In this document: positions 1 through 22,513 of the stretch, piece after piece | How positions within the stretch are numbered: the first letter of the stretch is position 1 | Layout: every line of letters starts with the position of its first letter | Virus record (IMG/VR): IMGVR_UViG_2713896798_000006 | Strand: one strand, 5' to 3' | Source of the DNA: a virus | Taxonomy: Duplodnaviria; Heunggongvirae; Uroviricota; Caudoviricetes | Length of the DNA: 25,620 nt | The notes under the pieces: generated by a model | Told to the model about the DNA's origin: nothing | The model's input: only the letters and a program-made list of their open reading frames with translations | The model's database searches: none | Position numbers and translations under genes: made by a program

Positions 1-468
1 ATGCCAGATCAAAAAGAAAGTGAGAACACCAAACTCACTTGTGAAGAACAAAAGGATAATGAACTGGTTTCTCGAGTAATCGAAAATCCAGAGGTCTTAA
101 ACAGGGTTTTGGATAGTCCGCAGGTGCGGGCTATTGTTTGCCAGCATTTTCAGGGGCCTGTTCCGCCACCTTCAATGCTTAAAAAGTATGATCAACTGGT
201 GCCTGGGCTTGCAAATCGACTTGTTGAGTTGACCGAAAAAGAGCAGGCTCATCGCCATAAAACAGTGGCTGATAGCATTGATATTGCCAGAGATGGTCAA
301 ACAAAGGCTTTTTGGTTGGCAATATTGATCATCTTAGCTGCCACTGTCTTTGGCGTCATGGGGGAGACAGTTCTTGCCGGAACTCTCGTTTCAATAGATC
401 TTGTTGCATTGGTTACGGCATTTATTGTTGGAAAACATTATTCTAAGCAGGAACCTGATCAAGATTAG
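1..468 (+). CDS. Hypothetical protein with hydrophobic C-terminal segments (likely membrane anchored); ORF starts at the window edge so the N-terminus may be incomplete
   Basis: 155-aa ORF in the track; C-terminal stretch AFWLAILIILAATVFGVMGETVLAGTLVSIDLVALVTAFIVG is strongly hydrophobic; followed by a hairpin plus T-run. No family recognised. Confidence 0.4.
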   Translation: MPDQKESENTKLTCEEQKDNELVSRVIENPEVLNRVLDSPQVRAIVCQHFQGPVPPPSMLKKYDQLVPGLANRLVELTEKEQAHRHKTVADSIDIARDGQTKAFWLAILIILAATVFGVMGETVLAGTLVSIDLVALVTAFIVGKHYSKQEPDQD

Positions 469-5078: not shown

Positions 5079-5136
5079 AAAAAGGGCGGCAGAGCAGCCA
5101 CGGAGTAAAACTGATACCGCCAAACGTCACCAGAAA
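5079..5136 (-). ncRNA. dicF: DicF small RNA (ftsZ-targeting sRNA of the dicB operon)
   Basis: Reverse complement of 5084..5136 reads TTTCTGGTGACGTTTGGCGGTATCAGTTTTACTCCGTGGCTGCTCTGCCGCCC followed by TTTTT, matching the ~53-nt DicF sequence as I recall it; lies about 175 nt upstream of dicB. Confidence 0.8.
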
Positions 5137-5175: not shown

Positions 5176-6371
<1,196 letters not shown>

Positions 6372-8034: not shown

Positions 8035-8103
8035 TTAGGCAATCCCTACTCTCGATGTATTAGGCATAGCCTATTGACAATTTCATTAGGCTAAGCCTAA
8101 TAT
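8035..8103 (+). promoter_or_regulatory. Rightward PR-like promoter with operator sites
   Basis: TTGACA (8074..8079), 18-bp spacer, TAATAT (8098..8103); palindromes TAGGCATAGCCTA (8061..8073) and TTAGGCTAAGCCTAA (8087..8101) plus half-site TTAGGC (8035..8040). Confidence 0.55.
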
Positions 8104-9854: not shown

Positions 9855-10595
9855 ATGAAAAACATTGCGGCAGTTGGGGTTCTTGAACGTATTCGCAGAC
9901 TTGCACCACAGGGGGCGGTTCCACCGTACCGGACGGTGGAGGAGTGGCGGGAATGGCAACTTGCTGAAGGACGAAAACGCAGCGAGGAGATTAACCGCCT
10001 GAATCATCAGGTGCGGGTTGAAAAAATCCTGAACCGTGCGGGCATCCAGCCGCTTCACAGGAAGTGCTCATTCGGGAACTACCGGGTGCAGAACGACGGT
10101 CAGCGCCATGCTCTGAGCCAGGCGAAATCCATTGCCGATGAATTGATGACCGGATGTACAAACTTCGTGTTCAGCGGTAAACCTGGTACCGGTAAAAATC
10201 ACCTGGCAGCAGCGATTGGCAATCGGCTGATGGCGAAGGGGAGAAGCGTGATTATCGTCACCGTGTCCGATGTCATGAGCGTGTTGCATGACGGCTACGA
10301 CAACGGCCAGTCCGGGGAAAAATTTTTACAGGAGCTTTGTGGAGTTGACCTTCTGGTCCTTGATGAAATTGGCATGCAGCGGGATACGCGCAACGAGCAG
10401 GTCACGCTGAACCAGATAGTCGACCGCAGAACGGCTTCGATGCGTAGTGTCGGAATGCTGACGAACCTGAATCACGCAGCGATGAGCACACTCCTCGGAG
10501 ATCGGGTGATGGACCGTATGACCATGAATGGTGGTCGTTGGGTGAATTTTAACTGGGAGAGCTGGCGGTCAAACGTTGGACGTCAGGGTATGTGA
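9855..10595 (+). CDS. DnaC-like helicase loader (AAA+ ATPase, IstB/DnaC family)
   Basis: Walker A GKPGTGKNHLAAAIG and Walker B LLVLDEIG; 246 aa; downstream of the O-like gene. Confidence 0.85.
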   Translation: MKNIAAVGVLERIRRLAPQGAVPPYRTVEEWREWQLAEGRKRSEEINRLNHQVRVEKILNRAGIQPLHRKCSFGNYRVQNDGQRHALSQAKSIADELMTGCTNFVFSGKPGTGKNHLAAAIGNRLMAKGRSVIIVTVSDVMSVLHDGYDNGQSGEKFLQELCGVDLLVLDEIGMQRDTRNEQVTLNQIVDRRTASMRSVGMLTNLNHAAMSTLLGDRVMDRMTMNGGRWVNFNWESWRSNVGRQGM

Positions 10596-10620
10596 GAATT
10601 TTTGACGAGGTAAATTTTCG

Positions 10621-11391
10621 ATGGAAACTGTATTGCATGCACTGAAAGCGATGGGAAAAGCCAATTCTGTTGAACTGGCGGCGCGGCTTGATATCAGCCG
10701 TGAAGAAGTTCTTAACGAACTGTGGGAACTCAAAAAAAATGGCGTTGTTGATAAAACGGGTCACACCTGGTTTCTGGCTGTCGAAGGTGAAGCCGGGGTA
10801 ACCGAAGGGCAGGCACTACAACCTGAAGCGCCGGATGTGGTAACCGAAGAGGTCGCTCCAAAAGTTACCGCAGACATGATGGTTGAGTTTATCGGTCAGG
10901 ATGGTGCTAAAACGTGTGAGGAACTGGCGGGTAAGTTCGGCGTCAGTACTCGCAAGGTTGCTTCCACGCTGGCGGTGGTAACCGCAACGGGGCGGCTGGC
11001 ACGCGTTAATCAGAACGGTAAATTTCGTTACTGCATGTCGGGGGGTAATTTACCAGCAGATCCGAAAGCCGCGCCGGTAACGAAAAATGATGGTAAGGCC
11101 TTTCCTCAGCCAGCAGGTGCTGCGTTACCAGTCCGGGAAGCCGCAACACAGGAAGAAATTAAAACAGAAACTGTGGCGGACATTGTGCAGCCGTTGCTAT
11201 CGTTTACCGAAACGCAAGCAGATGAGCTGATTTTTCCGTCCCTGCGCAGGGCAAACCTGGCGCTGCGCAGGGCGAAAAGTGATGTTCAGAAGTGGGAGCG
11301 AGTCTGCGCCGCGCTGCGGGAGCTGAACAAGCACCGGGATATTGTTCGACAGATTACTGATTCTTCCCGCCGTGTTGTATCGGAAAAGTGA
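10621..11391 (+). CDS. Hypothetical prophage protein with N-terminal winged-helix-like segment
   Basis: 256-aa ORF; N-terminus ANSVELAARLDISREEVLNELWELKKNGVVDKTGHTW looks like a wHTH; central Ala/Pro-rich linker. Confidence 0.5.
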   Translation: METVLHALKAMGKANSVELAARLDISREEVLNELWELKKNGVVDKTGHTWFLAVEGEAGVTEGQALQPEAPDVVTEEVAPKVTADMMVEFIGQDGAKTCEELAGKFGVSTRKVASTLAVVTATGRLARVNQNGKFRYCMSGGNLPADPKAAPVTKNDGKAFPQPAGAALPVREAATQEEIKTETVADIVQPLLSFTETQADELIFPSLRRANLALRRAKSDVQKWERVCAALRELNKHRDIVRQITDSSRRVVSEK

Positions 11392-11406
11392 TAGCCGGAG
11401 GCGCTT

Positions 11407-11802
11407 ATGGCGAAACCTTTTACACACGAACAGCGTGAAGAACTGAAGGCCCGAATTATCGGGCTGGTACGCAAAAATGAACGCATGACGATATCACAAC
11501 TGGAGAGAGCGACGGGAGCAGGCTGGCATTCAGTCAGACGTTGCCTTGTGGATGTACTGGCTTGTGGCGATTTATACATGCCCGGTAAATACGGTGTTTT
11601 TACATCAGAACAGGTGTATCGCGTATGGCGTAAGGCAGCGGAGAAAGCAACCGACCAGACATTGATTCGAAAGTTACCAGACGGAGAAATACGCCGCTAC
11701 GACAGACAACAGAACATAATCTGTGGCGAGTGCCGGAAGAGTGAAGTTATGCTGCGTGTACTGGCGTTCTATCAGGGCAATTTTCAGGAGGCGGTACTGT
11801 GA
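11407..11802 (+). CDS. Hypothetical prophage protein (131 aa)
   Basis: ORF with GGAGG ribosome-binding site 6 nt upstream; possible HTH-like MTISQLERATGAGWHSVRRCL; overlaps the next gene start. Confidence 0.45.
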   Translation: MAKPFTHEQREELKARIIGLVRKNERMTISQLERATGAGWHSVRRCLVDVLACGDLYMPGKYGVFTSEQVYRVWRKAAEKATDQTLIRKLPDGEIRRYDRQQNIICGECRKSEVMLRVLAFYQGNFQEAVL

Positions 11803-12443
11803 GTGAATTAGCTATCAGGCTTCAATTGTCGCTGGCATTCGCATCAAAGGAGAATGAGATGATCACTTTTACAAAAGAGCAGTTAATCAGTCATGTTAGT
11901 GAAAATGTAAAGGCGATGAAATTTGCAGTAAAACAGACAGTATTCAAAAATTCTCTCGAGGCAATTGAGTTGGATTTAGCACTGGCCCTTGTTGCTCAGG
12001 CTTCGCTGGAAGCAGAGCCCGTGCTTTATATGAATCGATTTACCGGAAAGACATTCTCACTGGAAGAGCAACCCGGTGCTGATAAGGAACCGGAAATATA
12101 CGTGCCGCTATATGCTGCCCCGCCAGACAGCGCCGCCATGCTTCAGGCTGGAAACTTTCGGGAAAATAAGGGTTCGTCAACCAATAATTTTCGGGAAATC
12201 TCGGAAACGTCAACCAACTATCCGGTAACTCCGGATGGTTGGATAAGCTGTAGTGAGCGAATGCCGGATGATGGTCAGCACGTAATTATTTTATGTGATG
12301 GCGCATTCGTTCTTTATGCGCAATATCGAGACGGTGAGTTTTTTGATGTAGTCCGTAATGGTGATGAATTTTTCGAAACACAGAGCCGCAATGTAACCGA
12401 CTGGATGCCGCTACCAGAACCGCCGCAGGAGGTGCGCCAATGA
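11799..12443 (+). CDS. DUF551-like C-terminal domain protein; alternative start at 11859
   Basis: C-terminus WISCSERMPDDGQHVIILCDGAFVLYAQYRDGEFFD...WMPLPEPP typical of DUF551; both GTG 11799 and ATG 11859 have good Shine-Dalgarno sequences. Confidence 0.6.
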   Translation: MSELAIRLQLSLAFASKENEMITFTKEQLISHVSENVKAMKFAVKQTVFKNSLEAIELDLALALVAQASLEAEPVLYMNRFTGKTFSLEEQPGADKEPEIYVPLYAAPPDSAAMLQAGNFRENKGSSTNNFREISETSTNYPVTPDGWISCSERMPDDGQHVIILCDGAFVLYAQYRDGEFFDVVRNGDEFFETQSRNVTDWMPLPEPPQEVRQ

Positions 12444-12523
12444 TCTGGCCTGAAGCCTTTGCAATTACAGGCGTTGCTATAGCTATTGATTTTTTAGTAT
12501 ATGTTATTTGTCGGTGGGGGTAA
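12440..12523 (+). CDS. Tiny hydrophobic ORF (27 aa), MIWPEAFAITGVAIAIDFLVYVICRWG
   Basis: ATGA overlap with the preceding stop; manual translation; not in the ORF track. Confidence 0.25.
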   Translation: MIWPEAFAITGVAIAIDFLVYVICRWG

Positions 12524-12558: not shown

Positions 12559-12663
12559 ATGTCGGATGATATTTCACTGGCAATGGAAGGTGCTCTGGCT
12601 GTTATTGCTGTTGTGGGCGTTTACTGCCTGGTTGTGTTTTTGATGGATCGACTAGGGAACTGA
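12559..12663 (+). CDS. Small membrane peptide (34 aa), MSDDISLAMEGALAVIAVVGVYCLVVFLMDRLGN
   Basis: Strong Shine-Dalgarno AAGGAGGG 4-5 nt upstream of ATG; single predicted transmembrane helix; manual translation. Confidence 0.4.
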   Translation: MSDDISLAMEGALAVIAVVGVYCLVVFLMDRLGN

Positions 12664-12693: not shown

Positions 12694-12908
12694 GGTAAAA
12701 ACGGTTTGCGGTAAAGCGAGAGTTAAGTAGAATTGCTGCGGGTGCTTGAGGCTGTCTGCCTCGGGCATGCCACCGTAAGGCAGACAGAGAAAAGCCCCAG
12801 TTAACATTACGCGTCCTGCAAGACGCCTAACATTAATCTGAGGCCAATTTCATGCTAGACATATGTAGGTTAGCCTCTTACGCGCCGAAAGGCAAGGAGA
12901 AGCAGGCT

Positions 12909-13064
12909 ATGAAGCAGCAAAAGGCGATGTTAATCGCCCTGATCGTCATCTGTATCACCGTCATAGTGACGGCACTGGTAACGAGGAAAGACCTCTGCGA
13001 GGTACGAATCCGAACCGGCCAGACGGAGGTCGCTGTCTTCACAGCTTACGAACCTGAGGAGTAA
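12909..13064 (+). CDS. hokD: Hok/Gef family type I toxin (51 aa)
   Basis: MKQQKAMLIALIVICITVIVTALVTRKDLCEVRIRTGQTEVAVFTAYEPEE is essentially K-12 HokD as I recall it; followed by a terminator; the track ORF extends upstream in frame from 12852. Confidence 0.85.
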   Translation: MKQQKAMLIALIVICITVIVTALVTRKDLCEVRIRTGQTEVAVFTAYEPEE

Positions 13065-13133
13065 GAGACCTGGCGAGGGAGAAATCCCTCGCCACCTCTG
13101 ATGAATCAGGCATCCTCAACGCACCCGCACTTA

Positions 13134-13159
13134 ACCCGCTTCGGCGGGTTTTGTTTTTT
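13134..13159 (+). terminator. Rho-independent terminator of the hok transcript
   Basis: Stem acccgc/gcgggt with ttcg loop followed by tttgtttttt; preceded by a second hairpin ggcgaggga...tccctcgcc. Confidence 0.7.
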
Positions 13160-16530: not shown

Positions 16531-16695
16531 TTTTTTTGTTTACTGTTTATTAAAAATACTACTGCATGGTGAATCCCCCTGTGCGGAGGGGCAATCAGCA
16601 ACCAGGTATATGTGATAATCGCGGATTCAGGTGCTGATACTGAATTCACCGGGAGGCACCCGGCACCATGCAAGAAAAAGAATGTGCATGCAAAC

Positions 16696-16723
16696 ATGCC
16701 CCTCTCCTGAGGGGCATTTTTAT
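16696..16723 (+). terminator. Rho-independent terminator (plus strand)
   Basis: 9-bp stem ATGCCCCTC/GAGGGGCAT, loop tcct, then ttttta. Confidence 0.55.
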
Positions 16724-16724
16724 G

Positions 16725-16752
16725 GGTAAAAAATGCCCGAATGGGTTCGGGC
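16725..16752 (-). terminator. Rho-independent terminator (minus strand), back to back with the plus-strand one
   Basis: Stem gcccgaa/ttcgggc with loop tggg; on the minus strand it is followed by the U-run complementary to ggtaaaaaat. Confidence 0.4.
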
Positions 16753-16848
16753 AATAGCATGAGATACTGATATTGTTGTGTTGTTATCGTGTGGATTTTA
16801 ACCAGGGTTTATCAGGCTGCGCAACTGCGTGGCCTTTTTTCATTTCTT

Positions 16849-19351: not shown

Positions 19352-20965
19352 TTATTTATTGGTGAGTACTACGTTCCATGGCAGGAGTTCGTCAACTCGG
19401 TTGGAAGGCCATTCCGGCAGTACGCTCAGGATATGGCGCAGATACGCTTCCGGATCGATACCGTTCAGACGGCAGGTGCCGATCAGCCCGTACAACAGTG
19501 CTCCACGCTCGCCGCCGTGATCGCTGCCAAAGAACATAAAGTTTTTCTTTCCGAGACAGACTGCACGAAGCGCTCTTTCCGCAGCATTATTATCCGCCTC
19601 CGCCAGACCGTCATCACTGTAATAACAGAGGGCATCCCACTGATTCAGTACATAGCTGAACGCTTCGCCCAGTCTGGATTTTTTCGACAGCGTACCATTC
19701 TTCTCCACCATCCATTCATGCAGCGACGTCAGTAACACTTTGCTTCGCTGCTGCCTGACGGCAAGACGCTCTGACTCCGGTAATCCCCGTATTTCATCCT
19801 CGATGGCGTACAGTTCACTGATTCGCTTCAGGGCTTCTTCTGCCGTCGCACTTTTGCTGCTGATGTATACATCGTGGATTTTTCGCCGGGCATGGGCCCA
19901 GCACGCAACTTCTGTCAGTGCACCACCTTCACGTTCTGCACTGAACAACCTGTCGTAACCTGTGAACGCATCCGCCTGCAGGATACCCCGGAAGGGGCGG
20001 AGGTGTTGCTCCGGGTGTTTCCCCTGCCGGTTCGGCGAGTACGCGAACCAGACCGCTGGAGGAGATGACGAACCCACATTGCGATCATCCCGGACATACG
20101 TCCAGATACGCCCTGTTTTCGCCTTTTTCTGACCCGGTGCCAGTACCTTTACCGGTGTGTCATCAGTGTGAACCTTGCGGGTGTTCATTACATAACGGTA
20201 CAGGGCATCATTCACCGGTGTCATTAACTGGCAGCACGCGTCAACCCAGTTGGAGAGTAAGGCCCGGCTCAGTTCGACACCCTGGCGGGCAAAGATTTCA
20301 CTCTGACGATACAGTGGCAGATGTTCGCAGTATTTTCCCGTTAACACGCGGGCAAGTAATCCGGGGCCCGCGATACCACGCTCTATCGGGCGGGACGGCG
20401 CCGGTGCTTCAACAATACAGTCACATTTTGTACAGGCTTTTTTTACCCGTTCTGTGCGGATCACTTTCAGGGCACTGCTCACCAGTTCCAGCTGTTCAGC
20501 GCTGACTTCCCCCAGATAATCCAGCTCACCGCCACACTCCGGGCAACAGCTTTCTTCTGGCTCCAGGCGGTGTATTTCACGGGGAAGGTGTGCCGGTAAC
20601 GGACGACGATGGCGCGACTGTCGCAACTGGCGGGGAACCTGAGGATCGTCTTCCCGCCCACTGTAACGATCGCTGTCCTGTTCACGTTGTTTCAGCAGAG
20701 CCTCAGCCAGTTCAACTTCACGACGCAGTTTTTCAGAACGGGTACCGAACAGCATCCGGCGCAGTTTTTCTATCTGAGCCCGCAGATGTTCTATTTCCCG
20801 TTCATCTTCTTCGATCTTTTCTTCGGCACGTGTCAGTGCAGAGCGCAGGAAGGCTTCCGTCTCTTCAACCAGACTCAGTTGCTGGTCTTTCTGACGGAGG
20901 GCTTCAGCCTGCTCAGAGAGCAACCTTTCCAGCTCTGCGATGCGAATGAGGTATTTCTGACTCAT
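19352..20965 (-). CDS. IS66-family transposase (TnpC, 537 aa)
   Basis: N-terminal coiled-coil/leucine-zipper region, Cys-rich zinc-binding segment (CPECGG...CTKCDC) and length typical of IS66 TnpC. Confidence 0.85.
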   Translation of the reverse strand: MSQKYLIRIAELERLLSEQAEALRQKDQQLSLVEETEAFLRSALTRAEEKIEEDEREIEHLRAQIEKLRRMLFGTRSEKLRREVELAEALLKQREQDSDRYSGREDDPQVPRQLRQSRHRRPLPAHLPREIHRLEPEESCCPECGGELDYLGEVSAEQLELVSSALKVIRTERVKKACTKCDCIVEAPAPSRPIERGIAGPGLLARVLTGKYCEHLPLYRQSEIFARQGVELSRALLSNWVDACCQLMTPVNDALYRYVMNTRKVHTDDTPVKVLAPGQKKAKTGRIWTYVRDDRNVGSSSPPAVWFAYSPNRQGKHPEQHLRPFRGILQADAFTGYDRLFSAEREGGALTEVACWAHARRKIHDVYISSKSATAEEALKRISELYAIEDEIRGLPESERLAVRQQRSKVLLTSLHEWMVEKNGTLSKKSRLGEAFSYVLNQWDALCYYSDDGLAEADNNAAERALRAVCLGKKNFMFFGSDHGGERGALLYGLIGTCRLNGIDPEAYLRHILSVLPEWPSNRVDELLPWNVVLTNK

Positions 20966-20995
20966 GACCGTTTTTATAATGCGGTCAGGAGTTTT

Positions 20996-21346
20996 TTACA
21001 ACATTGTCAGTGAGTTACGGCTGGATGTTTTTGGCTGACGCCAGTCCAGCTTATCGAGGAGCATTGCCAGTTGCGAGCGGGTAATGGATACCTTGCCGTC
21101 ACGTACCGCAGGCCAGATAAACTGGCCTTCCTCCAGGCGTTTGGTGAACAGGCACAGACCATCAGCATCAGCCCAAAGAATTTTGACGGTGTCACCCCGT
21201 CGGCCACGGAAGATAAACAGGTGACCGGAGAAGGGATTATCATTCAGCACATGTTGTACCTGTTCTCCCAGTCCGTTGAAGGATTTACGCATATCGGTAA
21301 CGCCGGCAACGAGCCAGATACGGGTACCTGATGGGAGTGAGATCAT
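20996..21346 (-). CDS. IS66-family accessory protein TnpB (116 aa)
   Basis: MISLPSGTRIWLVAGVTDMRKSFNGL... typical IS66 Orf2; overlaps tnpA stop. Confidence 0.8.
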   Translation of the reverse strand: MISLPSGTRIWLVAGVTDMRKSFNGLGEQVQHVLNDNPFSGHLFIFRGRRGDTVKILWADADGLCLFTKRLEEGQFIWPAVRDGKVSITRSQLAMLLDKLDWRQPKTSSRNSLTML

Positions 21347-21768
21347 CTTCCCCTCCCGGTCAGTTCACGGATCAACACTGTGAGCAGCTCTGGCGATGGA
21401 TTTTCCAGCGTCATGTTACCGTGACGGAATTCCACCTTGCAGGAACTGGCACTGACTCTGGTCTGAGTGGAAGTGGATAAAGACGGCGCAATGGCCGCCA
21501 CAGGTTCTTTCTGCTCATCCGGCGTTATTTCTACAGGTAATAATTCAACGCCAGTGTCAGAAGAGGTCGTTACCGGAAGACGCCGCGAAACACGCCCTTC
21601 GTTCTGCCAGAGCCTGAGCCATTTGAAAATAACATTATCATTGACGCCATTTTCACGTGCAATCTGTGCAACACAAGCTCCAGGTTGTGATGCCAGTTCC
21701 ACCATACGAAGTTTGAATTCATTCGAATAGTTTTTACGAGGTTCTTTTCGCCAGTCCTGTAATTCCAT
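21343..21768 (-). CDS. IS66-family accessory protein TnpA (141 aa)
   Basis: HTH-containing first ORF of the IS66 operon, immediately upstream of and overlapping tnpB. Confidence 0.75.
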   Translation of the reverse strand: MELQDWRKEPRKNYSNEFKLRMVELASQPGACVAQIARENGVNDNVIFKWLRLWQNEGRVSRRLPVTTSSDTGVELLPVEITPDEQKEPVAAIAPSLSTSTQTRVSASSCKVEFRHGNMTLENPSPELLTVLIRELTGRGR

Positions 21769-22081
21769 ACTTAGATGTCCGTCTATATCAGATGGGCGTC
21801 TAAGTTACCAATTCTCGTCTGATGGCTACATACGGCGGTCAGTTTACGCTTACGTAAAATGAATATTTCTAACTGAAAAAACGTTCCATGAGGTGAGAAA
21901 AGGTCACAGGCAATCAATAACAGGACGTGATGAAAGACCCTTGCATTTGTGCGCTTTCTCTTTAGATAGCAGCAGATACTGAAAATCTGAGTTGTCGGGG
22001 AGTCAGGGATACAGCTGTGCAAGAGTTGGTCATTGTGATTCCATTGAAATCCTGTATGCCATGAAGGGCAGGATTTTATGG

Positions 22082-22396
22082 CTACCTGAGCTTTGGTGAT
22101 AGTAAGTTGAAAATTCGCATTTTTTGCTGACATGCGTAACGAGAATCCCATAAGCAGGGAGGACTTAATTCTTCATTAACCCATGCGTTGATATTATGTT
22201 TCAGCCGTTGAAGCATCAGCGGTGTTAATGTTGTGGTAATAATATCCAGCGTTTTATGTGAGATCTTACCGTAAGGGTCTGCAAGAATGCTGCTTGTTGC
22301 TTCGTTATTATCTGCCATCAGAAGAAGTAACTCTGATTTAACGTTTTCTGTCATTAGTTGTAAAAATCTTCTGCGCAAACTTTCTTTACTGTTCAT
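22082..22396 (-). CDS. Hypothetical 104-aa protein on the opposite strand, in an AT-rich segment between holin and endolysin
   Basis: ORF in the track; upstream on the minus strand is a perfect TATAAT; size and position resemble Qin ydfR (103 aa) but sequence identity not verified. Confidence 0.4.
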   Translation of the reverse strand: MNSKESLRRRFLQLMTENVKSELLLLMADNNEATSSILADPYGKISHKTLDIITTTLTPLMLQRLKHNINAWVNEELSPPCLWDSRYACQQKMRIFNLLSPKLR

Positions 22397-22513
22397 TTAT
22401 ATGGCTTCATTTGTTGTAATCTGCTGCGTCTCAAGGGATATGTTTATGAGAGCGACCATGAGTGTTGGATTATATACCTAACATATCAAGGGATTAGAAA
22501 TCGATAAATCCCC

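Follow-up and report, generated by a model that had tools for sequence, protein, structure and literature searches.

Catalogued accessory genes follow the helicase loader of a Rac-type E. coli prophage, with a remote lambda Ren homologue among them

Introduction

Lambda ren mutants reportedly turn Rex-sensitive, a result said to be that of Toothman and Herskowitz in 1980. In the pR operon, the gene lies directly after P, where the replication module ends; it is dispensable and is transcribed together with O and P (PMC3640518, PMC10695390), and two-hybrid assays show interactions of the Rex proteins with O and Ren (10.1101/2021.04.19.439022). The lambda nin region and the 'moron' slots of lambdoid phages carry variable small non-essential genes between the replication genes and Q, and these are swapped as cassettes at conserved junctions; both features recur in the locus described here. 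The Rac prophage of E. coli K-12 has the gene order racR, ydaS, ydaT, ydaU, ydaV, ydaW. In an overexpression screen, ydaW was a blocker of the retron toxin RcaT, the allele being the truncated one of K-12; in the available part of these sources, it is absent from the mechanisms taken further (10.1101/2020.06.22.160242; PMC11951105).

Here we analyze a 25,620-nucleotide stretch of viral DNA (IMG/VR record IMGVR_UViG_2713896798_000006), the whole of which is referred to as the window. A preliminary description had singled out three open reading frames, ORF1 to ORF3, as a coupled cluster of unknown function. These genes are already known: they belong to named families and stand in a typical lambdoid mosaic arrangement.

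Results

The DNA of this region matches, at 100% identity, a prophage of E. coli O103:H2 12009 and many other STEC genomes; the window is a Rac-type lambdoid prophage. In the identical genomes, the annotation runs racR, HTH, YdaT-family, HTH (O-like), ATP-binding, DUF1627, DUF977, DUF551, hokD, DUF968, RusA and antiterminator. As first described, reading frames of 256, 131 and 214 aa (the last counted from GTG) occupy positions 10621-12443, flanked upstream by an IstB/DnaC-like AAA+ helicase loader and downstream by sok and hokD (Table 1). Because the Pfam scores are far above their cut-offs, homologues were found in the thousands, and annotated coding sequences exist at 100% identity, ORF1, ORF2 and ORF3 are genuine conserved genes. 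All three are catalogued accessory genes, carried by a Rac-type E. coli prophage and assigned to the families DUF1627/YdaW, DUF977/'LygF'/Ren-like and DUF551, and are not anonymous. An NCBIfam search of the three proteins gave nothing above cut-off, and a literature search for 'LygF' returned only unrelated lysozyme-g papers. The region had been called nin-like, and in this lambdoid prophage it is indeed the equivalent of nin; its gene content differs from the ninB-ninI set of lambda and comprises the YdaW, Ren-like and DUF551 genes along with small peptide ORFs, hok/sok, DUF968 and RusA.

Table 1 Features of the ORF1–ORF3 locus in the window.
Feature	Position	Strand	Description	Evidence
pR-like promoter candidate	8074-8103	+	TTGACA-18-TAATAT, upstream of ydaS-like gene	consensus scan
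Helicase loader	9855-10595	+	DnaC/IstB-like (YdaV-like)	Pfam IstB_IS21 1.5e-19, Bac_DnaA 3.4e-7
ORF1	10621-11391	+	YdaW-family (DUF1627), 256 aa	RefSeq WP_000450874.1
ORF1 layout (approximate)	residues 1-55; 84-137; 197-255		winged helix 1; winged helix 2; single long C-terminal helix; disordered linkers between	
ORF2	11407-11802	+	DUF977/'LygF', 131 aa, long-form lambda Ren homologue	RefSeq WP_001118159.1
Coupling/junction signal	11786-11802	+	conserved AGGAGG-N7-GTGA at 3' end of DUF977 gene	44 distinct junctions compared
ORF3	11859-12443 (ATG, preferred) or 11799-12443 (GTG)	+	DUF551 protein, 194 or 214 aa	
hok/sok, downstream of ORF3	12740-12914 (sok)			sok by Rfam; hokD by annotation of identical genomes
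First strong terminator	13133-13150			

ORF1, ORF2 and ORF3 are the distal genes of an early-right (pR-like) operon that runs ydaS-like, ydaT-like, O-like, DnaC-like loader, ORF1, ORF2, ORF3; lambda has ren and the beginning of its nin region at this place. The promoter candidate is the sole plus-strand promoter-like site upstream of the cluster in the consensus scan, and the first strong terminator lies downstream of all three genes. Under RacR-type repression they would be silent in the lysogen, and after derepression or infection they would be made together with the replication proteins. Spacers of 25 nt and 15 nt, each with a Shine-Dalgarno sequence, precede ORF1 and ORF2, while ORF2 and ORF3 overlap at GTGA; the translational coupling ascribed to all three is therefore literally true for the ORF2/ORF3 pair only. 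The loader, directly 5' of ORF1, is the final gene of the replication module.

ORF1 aligns with the entire Pfam DUF1627 (PF07789) profile (1-155/155 on residues 91-245; 327.1 bits, cut-off 28.1; 1.9e-98) and matches phrog_630 at 5e-130. Profile searches place helix-turn-helix matches at residues 3-52 and 87-134, and those at the N-terminus (HTH_11 2.9e-5, ArsR-type 1e-5) bear out the winged-helix-like fold noted there earlier. K-12 Rac YdaW (b1361) likewise belongs to DUF1627 and PHROG 630, is 58% identical to ORF1 over residues 1-154, spanning both winged helices, and has the same place after ydaV, the K-12 gene order being matched in the window. The Rac internal deletion truncates K-12 YdaW beyond residue ~152; unlike ORF1, it has neither a second linker nor the long C-terminal helix. 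Judged by this comparison, ORF1 is the intact, full-length counterpart of K-12 Rac YdaW. An AF2 model of ORF1 built with 36 close homologues (mean pLDDT 49) is usable for secondary structure alone; Foldseek of this model against the PDB gave no significant match, and the ORF1 sequence gave only insignificant PDB matches. A DUF1627 pattern scan of genome contigs found matches in E. albertii only, the patterns being overly specific and the scan no measure of breadth.

ORF2 covers the full Pfam DUF977 (PF06163) profile (1-134/134; 243.1 bits against a cut-off of 22.1, 9.4e-73), and several comparisons relate it to lambda Ren. Both proteins match phrog_142, 'Ren-like exclusion protein' (ORF2 at 1.7e-43, Ren at 1.6e-41); BLASTP aligns them at E 2e-6 with 29% identity; and hhalign, run with the DUF977 profile against Ren, reports a probability of 95.9% and E 6.3e-9 over 89 columns, spanning the winged helix and a C-terminal motif. 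In ORF2 this motif reads PYDRxxNxICxECRxSxxMxRVLAFY, with near-invariant columns, and the form common to both proteins is N-x2-(C/F)-x-ECRxSxxMxRVLAxY. Both also have an N-terminal winged helix, seen for ORF2 in PDB profile matches, so that the possible HTH proposed earlier was well founded. Searching with lambda Ren by tblastn, DUF977 genes were the only matches in ~157 loci, a separate ren never occurring alongside. ORF2, like lambda Ren, sits where the replication module of the pR operon ends, although here the YdaW gene (ORF1) lies between the loader and ORF2. In mEp460-type phages, the DUF977 gene directly follows the replication gene. The two proteins also differ in length, Ren having 96 aa and ORF2 131 aa, with ~35 extra residues between winged helix and motif, and Ren matches no Pfam family. 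By these sequence comparisons, ORF2 is a remote, long-form homologue of lambda Ren. To this extent the cluster does include a relative of a characterized nin-region protein, which the preliminary description had set against its own reading: Ren is the product of a nin-side gene with an established Rex-escape phenotype. The window is without rexAB.

Searches of the PDB with the ORF2 sequence found nothing, and those with the DUF977 profile returned generic winged helices only. One of these, the Z-alpha (Z-DNA/Z-RNA) domain of PKZ, was matched by the DUF977 profile at E 1.4e-4 and was rejected as a model for ORF2. Z-alpha domains are marked by a conserved Asn and a conserved Tyr in recognition helix alpha-3 (N173 and Y177 in hADAR1); these signature residues are missing, the DUF977 consensus having Arg and Glu at the two aligned positions and ORF2 having Arg and Val. 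The second winged helix of ORF1 and that of DUF977 align by hhalign with 47% probability.

Comparison of loci showed how freely the three genes assort. ORF1 and ORF2 occur together in 46 of 48 close relatives, whereas ORF3 is complete in only 7 of the 48 ORF1-anchored loci. Among the matches listed, ~12 phage records carry both DUF1627 and DUF977, ~12 DUF1627 alone and ~12 DUF977 alone. The loader that precedes the DUF1627/DUF977 unit is DnaC-like in 50 non-redundant loci and lambda-P-like in 32. After the DUF977 gene, at least 10 alternative cassettes take the place of ORF3, and several alternative cassettes in other loci begin at the junction GTG; this slot is hypervariable, a cassette-exchange point. 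GC content falls across ORF3. Because the genes assort independently and the slot after DUF977 is hypervariable, they are three separately exchangeable accessory modules rather than a single three-gene system. The functional three-gene cluster of the preliminary description is accordingly not upheld, DUF1627, DUF977 and DUF551 each occurring without the others in other phages. Fusions of ORF1 and ORF2 were considered as evidence of functional linkage and set aside, the in-frame case (P0155) being a single metagenomic contig and the second 'fusion' frameshifted.

The C-terminus of ORF3, earlier called DUF551-like, matches the whole Pfam DUF551 (PF04448) profile (1-68/68, residues 147-210 in 214-aa numbering; 75.3 bits, cut-off 22); the domain core exists in at least six divergent variants, of which ORF3 has one. 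Its start is more likely ATG 11859 than GTG 11799, because PGAP annotates the former and an unrelated cassette has the same 45 nt after GTG; that cassette departs from the ORF3 sequence only after its own AAGGAG-N6-ATG. The DUF551 domain is predicted to form a small five-stranded Tudor/SH3-like beta-barrel, with the N-terminal half of ORF3 poorly modeled; the two AF2 models, this and that of ORF1, are both of low confidence overall (pLDDT 50 and 49, respectively), and fold matches are weak. CPS-53 YfdS and the V2 variant of Stx-phage Ea22 have a C-terminal DUF551 domain in common with ORF3, and DUF551 appears as a portable domain on varied N-termini of early phage genes; the N-terminal half of YfdS is unrelated to that of ORF3. 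ORF3 lies in the early-right operon, not in the exo-xis (ea) region, and shows no match to Ead_Ea22 (PF13935) at E up to 1. One alternative cassette in the ORF3 slot matches Ead_Ea22 at 9.9e-12. The DUF551 profile gave no PDB match even at E 10, and the ORF3 sequence gave insignificant ones only, including spurious ubiquitin matches on its linker, which were dismissed. A tandem-repeat search for an NFRE...STN duplication in ORF3 found none above threshold.

Discussion

For now the finding is of minor importance: hundreds of STEC genomes contain RefSeq proteins identical to these, and the families, though named, are uncharacterized in function. The gain is a cleaner annotation, with DUF977/'LygF' placed in the Ren family, ORF1 as an intact YdaW, the ORF3 start probably at ATG 11859, and the segment after DUF977 as an exchange point. 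Two statements of the preliminary description agree with this outcome, namely that the three proteins are without demonstrated molecular function and that the position carries accessory or anti-exclusion genes.

Our best guess, proposed because of homology and position, is that these are non-essential early genes that may shield the replicating phage from abortive-infection-type exclusion. ORF2 would act like Ren, as a small non-essential winged-helix protein that keeps an abortive-infection or exclusion system (Rex-type in the case of Ren) from firing at the phage replication phase, its target probably being a replication-associated nucleoprotein or the sensor itself. Since the prophage is without RexAB, that target would need to belong to another system. 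ORF1, usually linked to ORF2, would be a winged-helix protein, probably a dimer, with a protective or regulatory part like that of ORF2, K-12 YdaW having blocked RcaT in the overexpression screen; ORF3 would be a binding adaptor built on its predicted barrel. Taken as a whole, this account of Rac-type early-right accessory modules seems to us slightly better than an even bet.

Winged-helix proteins beside replication genes are equally plausible as replication or transcription factors. ORF1 and ORF2 might, as DNA-binding proteins, work at the origin, on the loader-helicase complex, or at early or late promoters, tuning replication or the lysis-lysogeny decision with no part in counter-defense. 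Their winged helices and their constant place directly after the helicase loader, whether DnaC-type or P-type, fit such a role; moreover, Thomason et al. describe ren as 'likely involved in DNA replication', with Ren and O interacting with the Rex proteins (10.1101/2021.04.19.439022), and K-12 YdaW is on a list of predicted transcription factors (PMC9308461). However, DUF1627 and DUF977 are each dispensable, many related phages lacking one or the other, and pairing with two unrelated loader types argues against a specific loader partnership. We regard this explanation as unlikely, though a serious contender.

The protective reading must also be weighed against two others. Tight spacing on one strand, Shine-Dalgarno sites, the near-constant pairing of ORF1 with ORF2 and the single in-frame fusion might suggest a dedicated three-component system, such as an anti-defense or defense complex encoded by a coupled operon. 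Comparative genomics already disfavors it, as ORF3 is swapped for unrelated cassettes and differs in GC content, about half of the DUF1627 carriers among the phage records listed are without DUF977 and vice versa, and the fusion is confined to one contig. PADLOC-DB models likewise indicate no defense-system membership for the three proteins: ORF3 is without any match, and the weak matches are to the HTH parts of Csa3/CARF/CasR models (best E 1.2e-5, on the ORF1 winged helix). We consider such a system highly improbable. A role as host-benefit 'moron' genes, active in the lysogen and aiding stress tolerance or biofilm formation, would accord with K-12 phenotypes, where deletion of ydaW reduces early biofilm and deletion of the DUF551 gene yfdS increases H2O2 sensitivity (PMC3105296). 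These are nevertheless single-gene knockouts in cryptic prophages, possibly polar or indirect; YfdS and ORF3 have only the DUF551 domain in common, and the genes here are without a promoter-like site of their own, within a repressor-controlled operon, so that we think this very unlikely.

Were the Ren-like/YdaW pair to counter abortive infection, it would open a molecular route into a problem 45 years old, the escape of Ren from Rex, and add a common anti-defense module for relatives of Shiga-toxin phages. A bolder extension, which we rate as a long shot, is that YdaW- and Ren-family genes form a widespread, unrecognized post-loader anti-abortive-infection module of lambdoid phages. Their winged-helix products would hide the replication-associated signals that set off Rex-, retron- or similar Abi systems, and the AGGAGG-N7-GTGA junction would serve as a dedicated landing pad for fast-exchanged counter-defense cassettes, including DUF551 barrels with hypervariable cores as target-binding adaptors.

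Gene calls and prophage context

All three ORFs are clearly genes, since their Pfam scores (327 bits for ORF1 with DUF1627, 243 bits for ORF2 with DUF977 and 75 bits for ORF3 with DUF551) lie far above the cut-offs of 22–28 bits and thousands of homologues were found. The ORF listing exactly matched the coordinates and sizes in a preliminary description, all on the + strand; its placement between a helicase loader and hok also stood, and its domain-level descriptions (winged-helix-like N-terminus in ORF1, possible HTH in ORF2, DUF551-like C-terminus in ORF3) were correct. A novel three-gene system, as implied by its framing of a cluster of unknown function, was not borne out: the proteins belong to already-known families, arranged as an ordinary lambdoid mosaic. 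PADLOC assigned none of the three to a defence system.

Coordinates of the three ORFs and flanking features in the window
Feature	Position	Strand	Remarks
Promoter-like site	8074–8103	+	Consensus scan; in front of ydaS-like gene
IstB/DnaC-like AAA+ loader	9855–10595		Immediately before ORF1
ORF1	10621–11391	+	256 aa, ATG start; ORF listing
ORF2	11407–11802	+	131 aa, ATG start; ORF listing
ORF3, long form	11799–12443	+	214 aa, GTG start; ORF listing
sok	12740–12914		Rfam; followed by hok ORF

The genes are closely spaced: the spacers upstream of ORF1 (25 nt) and ORF2 (15 nt) contain GAGG and GGAGG, respectively, and a GTG preceded by AGGAGG overlaps the ORF2 stop (GTGA). ORF1 and ORF2 share a reading frame, with only tandem stops (TGA TAG) and four codons between them (11389–11409).

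Many E. coli chromosomes, O103:H2 str. 12009 among them, carry the 2.3-kb three-gene segment at 100% identity, and nearly the entire window matches the same prophage, which is integrated beside potABCD according to RefSeq annotation; the best-matching strains carry additional IS elements. The RefSeq gene order is integrase, excisionase, exonuclease, dicB, racR, HTH (ydaS-like), YdaT-family, HTH (O-like), ATP-binding (DnaC-like), DUF1627, DUF977, DUF551, a 34-aa hypothetical protein, hokD, DUF968, RusA and antiterminator, the same architecture as in the K-12 Rac prophage. Consensus scanning found a single promoter-like site on the + strand, and no convincing + strand terminator before 13133–13150, after hok. 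From this arrangement we infer that ORF1–ORF3 are distal genes of a repressor-controlled early-right operon, which would be expressed alongside the replication genes upon derepression.

Rfam elements in the window comprised a hok/sok type I toxin-antitoxin (12740–13064), DicF (5084–5135, −), and STnc100 and AgvB, an anti-GcvB sRNA (16538–16727 and 16728–16789, −), an sRNA load typical of an EHEC-type lambdoid prophage. IS5-like (ISKpn26 family) and IS66-like (ISEc8/ISEc23) transposases are annotated in the best whole-window matches, and the large reverse-strand ORFs at ~5323–6303 (−) and ~19352–22400 (−) are probably such insertions, which are missing from the O103:H2 12009 prophage copy.

Association of the three genes across phages

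Comparison of related loci indicates that ORF1–ORF3 do not form one three-gene unit, because DUF1627 and DUF977 occur apart, full-length ORF3 is rare near them, and the contents of the following slot vary. The phage collection has 24 records with DUF1627 and 25 with DUF977; about one-third of these records combined carry both genes, and the rest only one. In phage mEp460, DUF977 alone comes after a replication gene, PPompW carries DUF1627 alone, and Shigella phage 75/02 carries both without DUF551. Among 48 IMG/VR loci that are close relatives of the window, ORF1 was linked to ORF2 in 46 and full ORF3 was found in 7. At least 10 alternatives occupy the slot after DUF977, including DUF551, a Zn-ribbon protein, Ead/Ea22-like, DUF4406, QueH, a putative methyltransferase, a reverse-strand DUF4145 gene, IS elements and orphans. 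Separability is also supported by GC content, which is 52–55% in the replication genes and in ORF1 and ORF2 but drops to 43–48% in ORF3.

Two apparent ORF1–ORF2 fusions among metagenomic homologues were rejected as evidence of linkage: P0155, joined in frame with both stops and the ATG substituted, is a single-contig variant, and P0199 is frameshifted.

ORF2 and lambda Ren

ORF2 matched phrog_142, 'Ren-like exclusion protein', at 1.7e-43, and lambda Ren, which had no match in a search of Pfam families, hit the same profile at 1.6e-41. Direct BLASTP between ORF2 and Ren gave an E-value of 2e-6, aligning a common C-terminal motif. In an alignment of diverse family members, this near-invariant motif, shared with Ren, reads PYDRxxNxICxECRxSxxMxRVLAFY. 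A profile built without Ren aligned with it over 89 columns spanning the winged helix and the motif (95.9% probability, E 6.3e-9). The family is small, as exhaustive phmmer against 1.84 billion representatives yielded only 70 clusters; phage records label such genes 'LygF' or 'Ren-like exclusion protein'.

The lambda ren gene lies directly after P. The gene preceding the DUF1627/DUF977 unit was a DnaC-like loader in 50 non-redundant loci and a lambda-P-like protein (PF06992) in 32, and tblastn with lambda Ren matched only the DUF977 genes, with no separate ren in these loci. Sharing this post-loader position, with no ren beside DUF977, the two are alternative alleles of one slot.

By profile search, the ORF2 N-terminal domain resembles solved winged helices, including Z-alpha domains; the best solved-structure matches of this region (window 11407–11580, residues ~7–58) were to fish PKZ Z-alpha (E 1.4e-4), and ORF1 weakly matched the ADAR1 Z-alpha domain. 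Since conservation does not extend to the signature Asn and Tyr that contact Z-DNA, a Z-alpha identity was rejected and these matches were treated as generic winged-helix similarity.

ORF1 and the YdaW family

ORF1 shares 58% identity with K-12 YdaW over residues 1–154. The match of K-12 YdaW to the DUF1627 profile is confined to positions 1–64, and the gene is followed by rzpR; the K-12 copy is therefore truncated, and ORF1 is the intact form. HMM matches place winged-helix domains at ~3–52 and ~87–134. Because all usable homologues are ≥81% identical, AF2 gave a poor model (mean pLDDT 49); its predicted secondary structure (three helices, a disordered stretch at 43–80, three helices and a beta hairpin, a low-confidence stretch to 197 and one helix at 197–255) agrees with the HMM layout. 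Foldseek with this model returned nothing significant, only local winged-helix matches.

The DUF1627 gene of Actinobacillus phage vB_Apl-pPE4 (PP818812.1, ~10072–10806) is 78% identical in amino acids and 83% in nucleotides to that of the window prophage. Its Actinobacillus pleuropneumoniae host label is unexpected for a gene otherwise restricted to Escherichia/Shigella.

Proposed roles of ORF1 and ORF2

Identity, homology, position and mosaic behaviour are demonstrated for ORF1–ORF3, and roles can be proposed on this basis. Mutation of ren renders lambda sensitive to Rex exclusion. ORF2 may act in a Ren-like manner, so that the replicating phage does not set off an exclusion or abortive-infection system, and ORF1 could have a related protective or regulatory role. 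The sole functional hint for ORF1 is a screen in which ydaW was among several prophage genes that blocked the retron-Sen2 toxin RcaT when overexpressed (10.1101/2020.06.22.160242; restated in PMC11951105). Deletion of ydaW also reduced early biofilm (PMC3105296).

The main rival to these protective roles casts ORF1 and ORF2 as accessories of replication or transcription. YdaW is listed as a predicted transcription factor of unknown function (PMC9308461). Rex proteins interact with O and Ren in two-hybrid assays, whose authors describe ren as 'likely involved in DNA replication' (10.1101/2021.04.19.439022); ren is co-transcribed with cro-cII-O-P and non-essential, and P-lethality and replicative killing do not need it (PMC3640518, PMC10695390).

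ORF3 start codon, cassette junction and DUF551 domain

PGAP starts ORF3 at ATG 11859, giving 194 aa. In a comparison of 44 distinct junctions downstream of the DUF977 stop codon, AGGAGG-N7-GTGA at the DUF977 3′ end (window 11786–11861 region) was conserved, and its GTG starts at least three unrelated cassettes (DUF4406, the putative methyltransferase and an 88-aa ORF). A 45-nt leader (11803–11846) is common to ORF3 and the unrelated Zn-ribbon cassette; each then has its own AAGGAG-N6-ATG, and the two diverge only past that ATG; leader variants show a 1-nt indel and substitutions without third-codon-position bias. This comparison favours ATG 11859 over GTG 11799 as the ORF3 start, and AGGAGG-N7-GTGA appears to be a fixed junction at which cassettes are exchanged by recombination and their translation is coupled.

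DUF551 occupies the last ~65 residues of ORF3 (Pfam). Comparison of window 12230–12440 with genes in E. coli prophage loci L041, L074, L082, L087, L115 and L155 revealed nearly invariant flanks, PDGWISCSERMP and THWMPLPEPPQEV, enclosing at least six very different ~45-aa cores. This pattern points to cassette exchange within the gene or to a rapidly diversifying binding surface. AF2 with a 130-sequence alignment predicted five beta strands for the domain at moderate confidence (mean pLDDT 69–89 per 10-residue block); the N-terminal half of ORF3 was unreliable. A sequence-profile search for solved structures of DUF551 gave no match, and BFVD structure matches were exclusively other DUF551 proteins, from phages of many hosts. 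DUF551 is a portable domain, also present in YfdS and the Ea22 V2 variant (PMC10834534, PMC4776307), and ORF3 may be a small-barrel binding adaptor.

Two short hydrophobic ORFs follow. The ATG of a 27-aa ORF, MIWPEAFAITGVAIAIDFLVYVICRWG (window 12440–12523), overlaps the ORF3 stop (ATGA). A PGAP-annotated 34-aa ORF with a strong Shine-Dalgarno sequence, MSDDISLAMEGALAVIAVVGVYCLVVFLMDRLGN (window 12559–12663), is usually accompanied at its locus by the DUF551 C-terminus.
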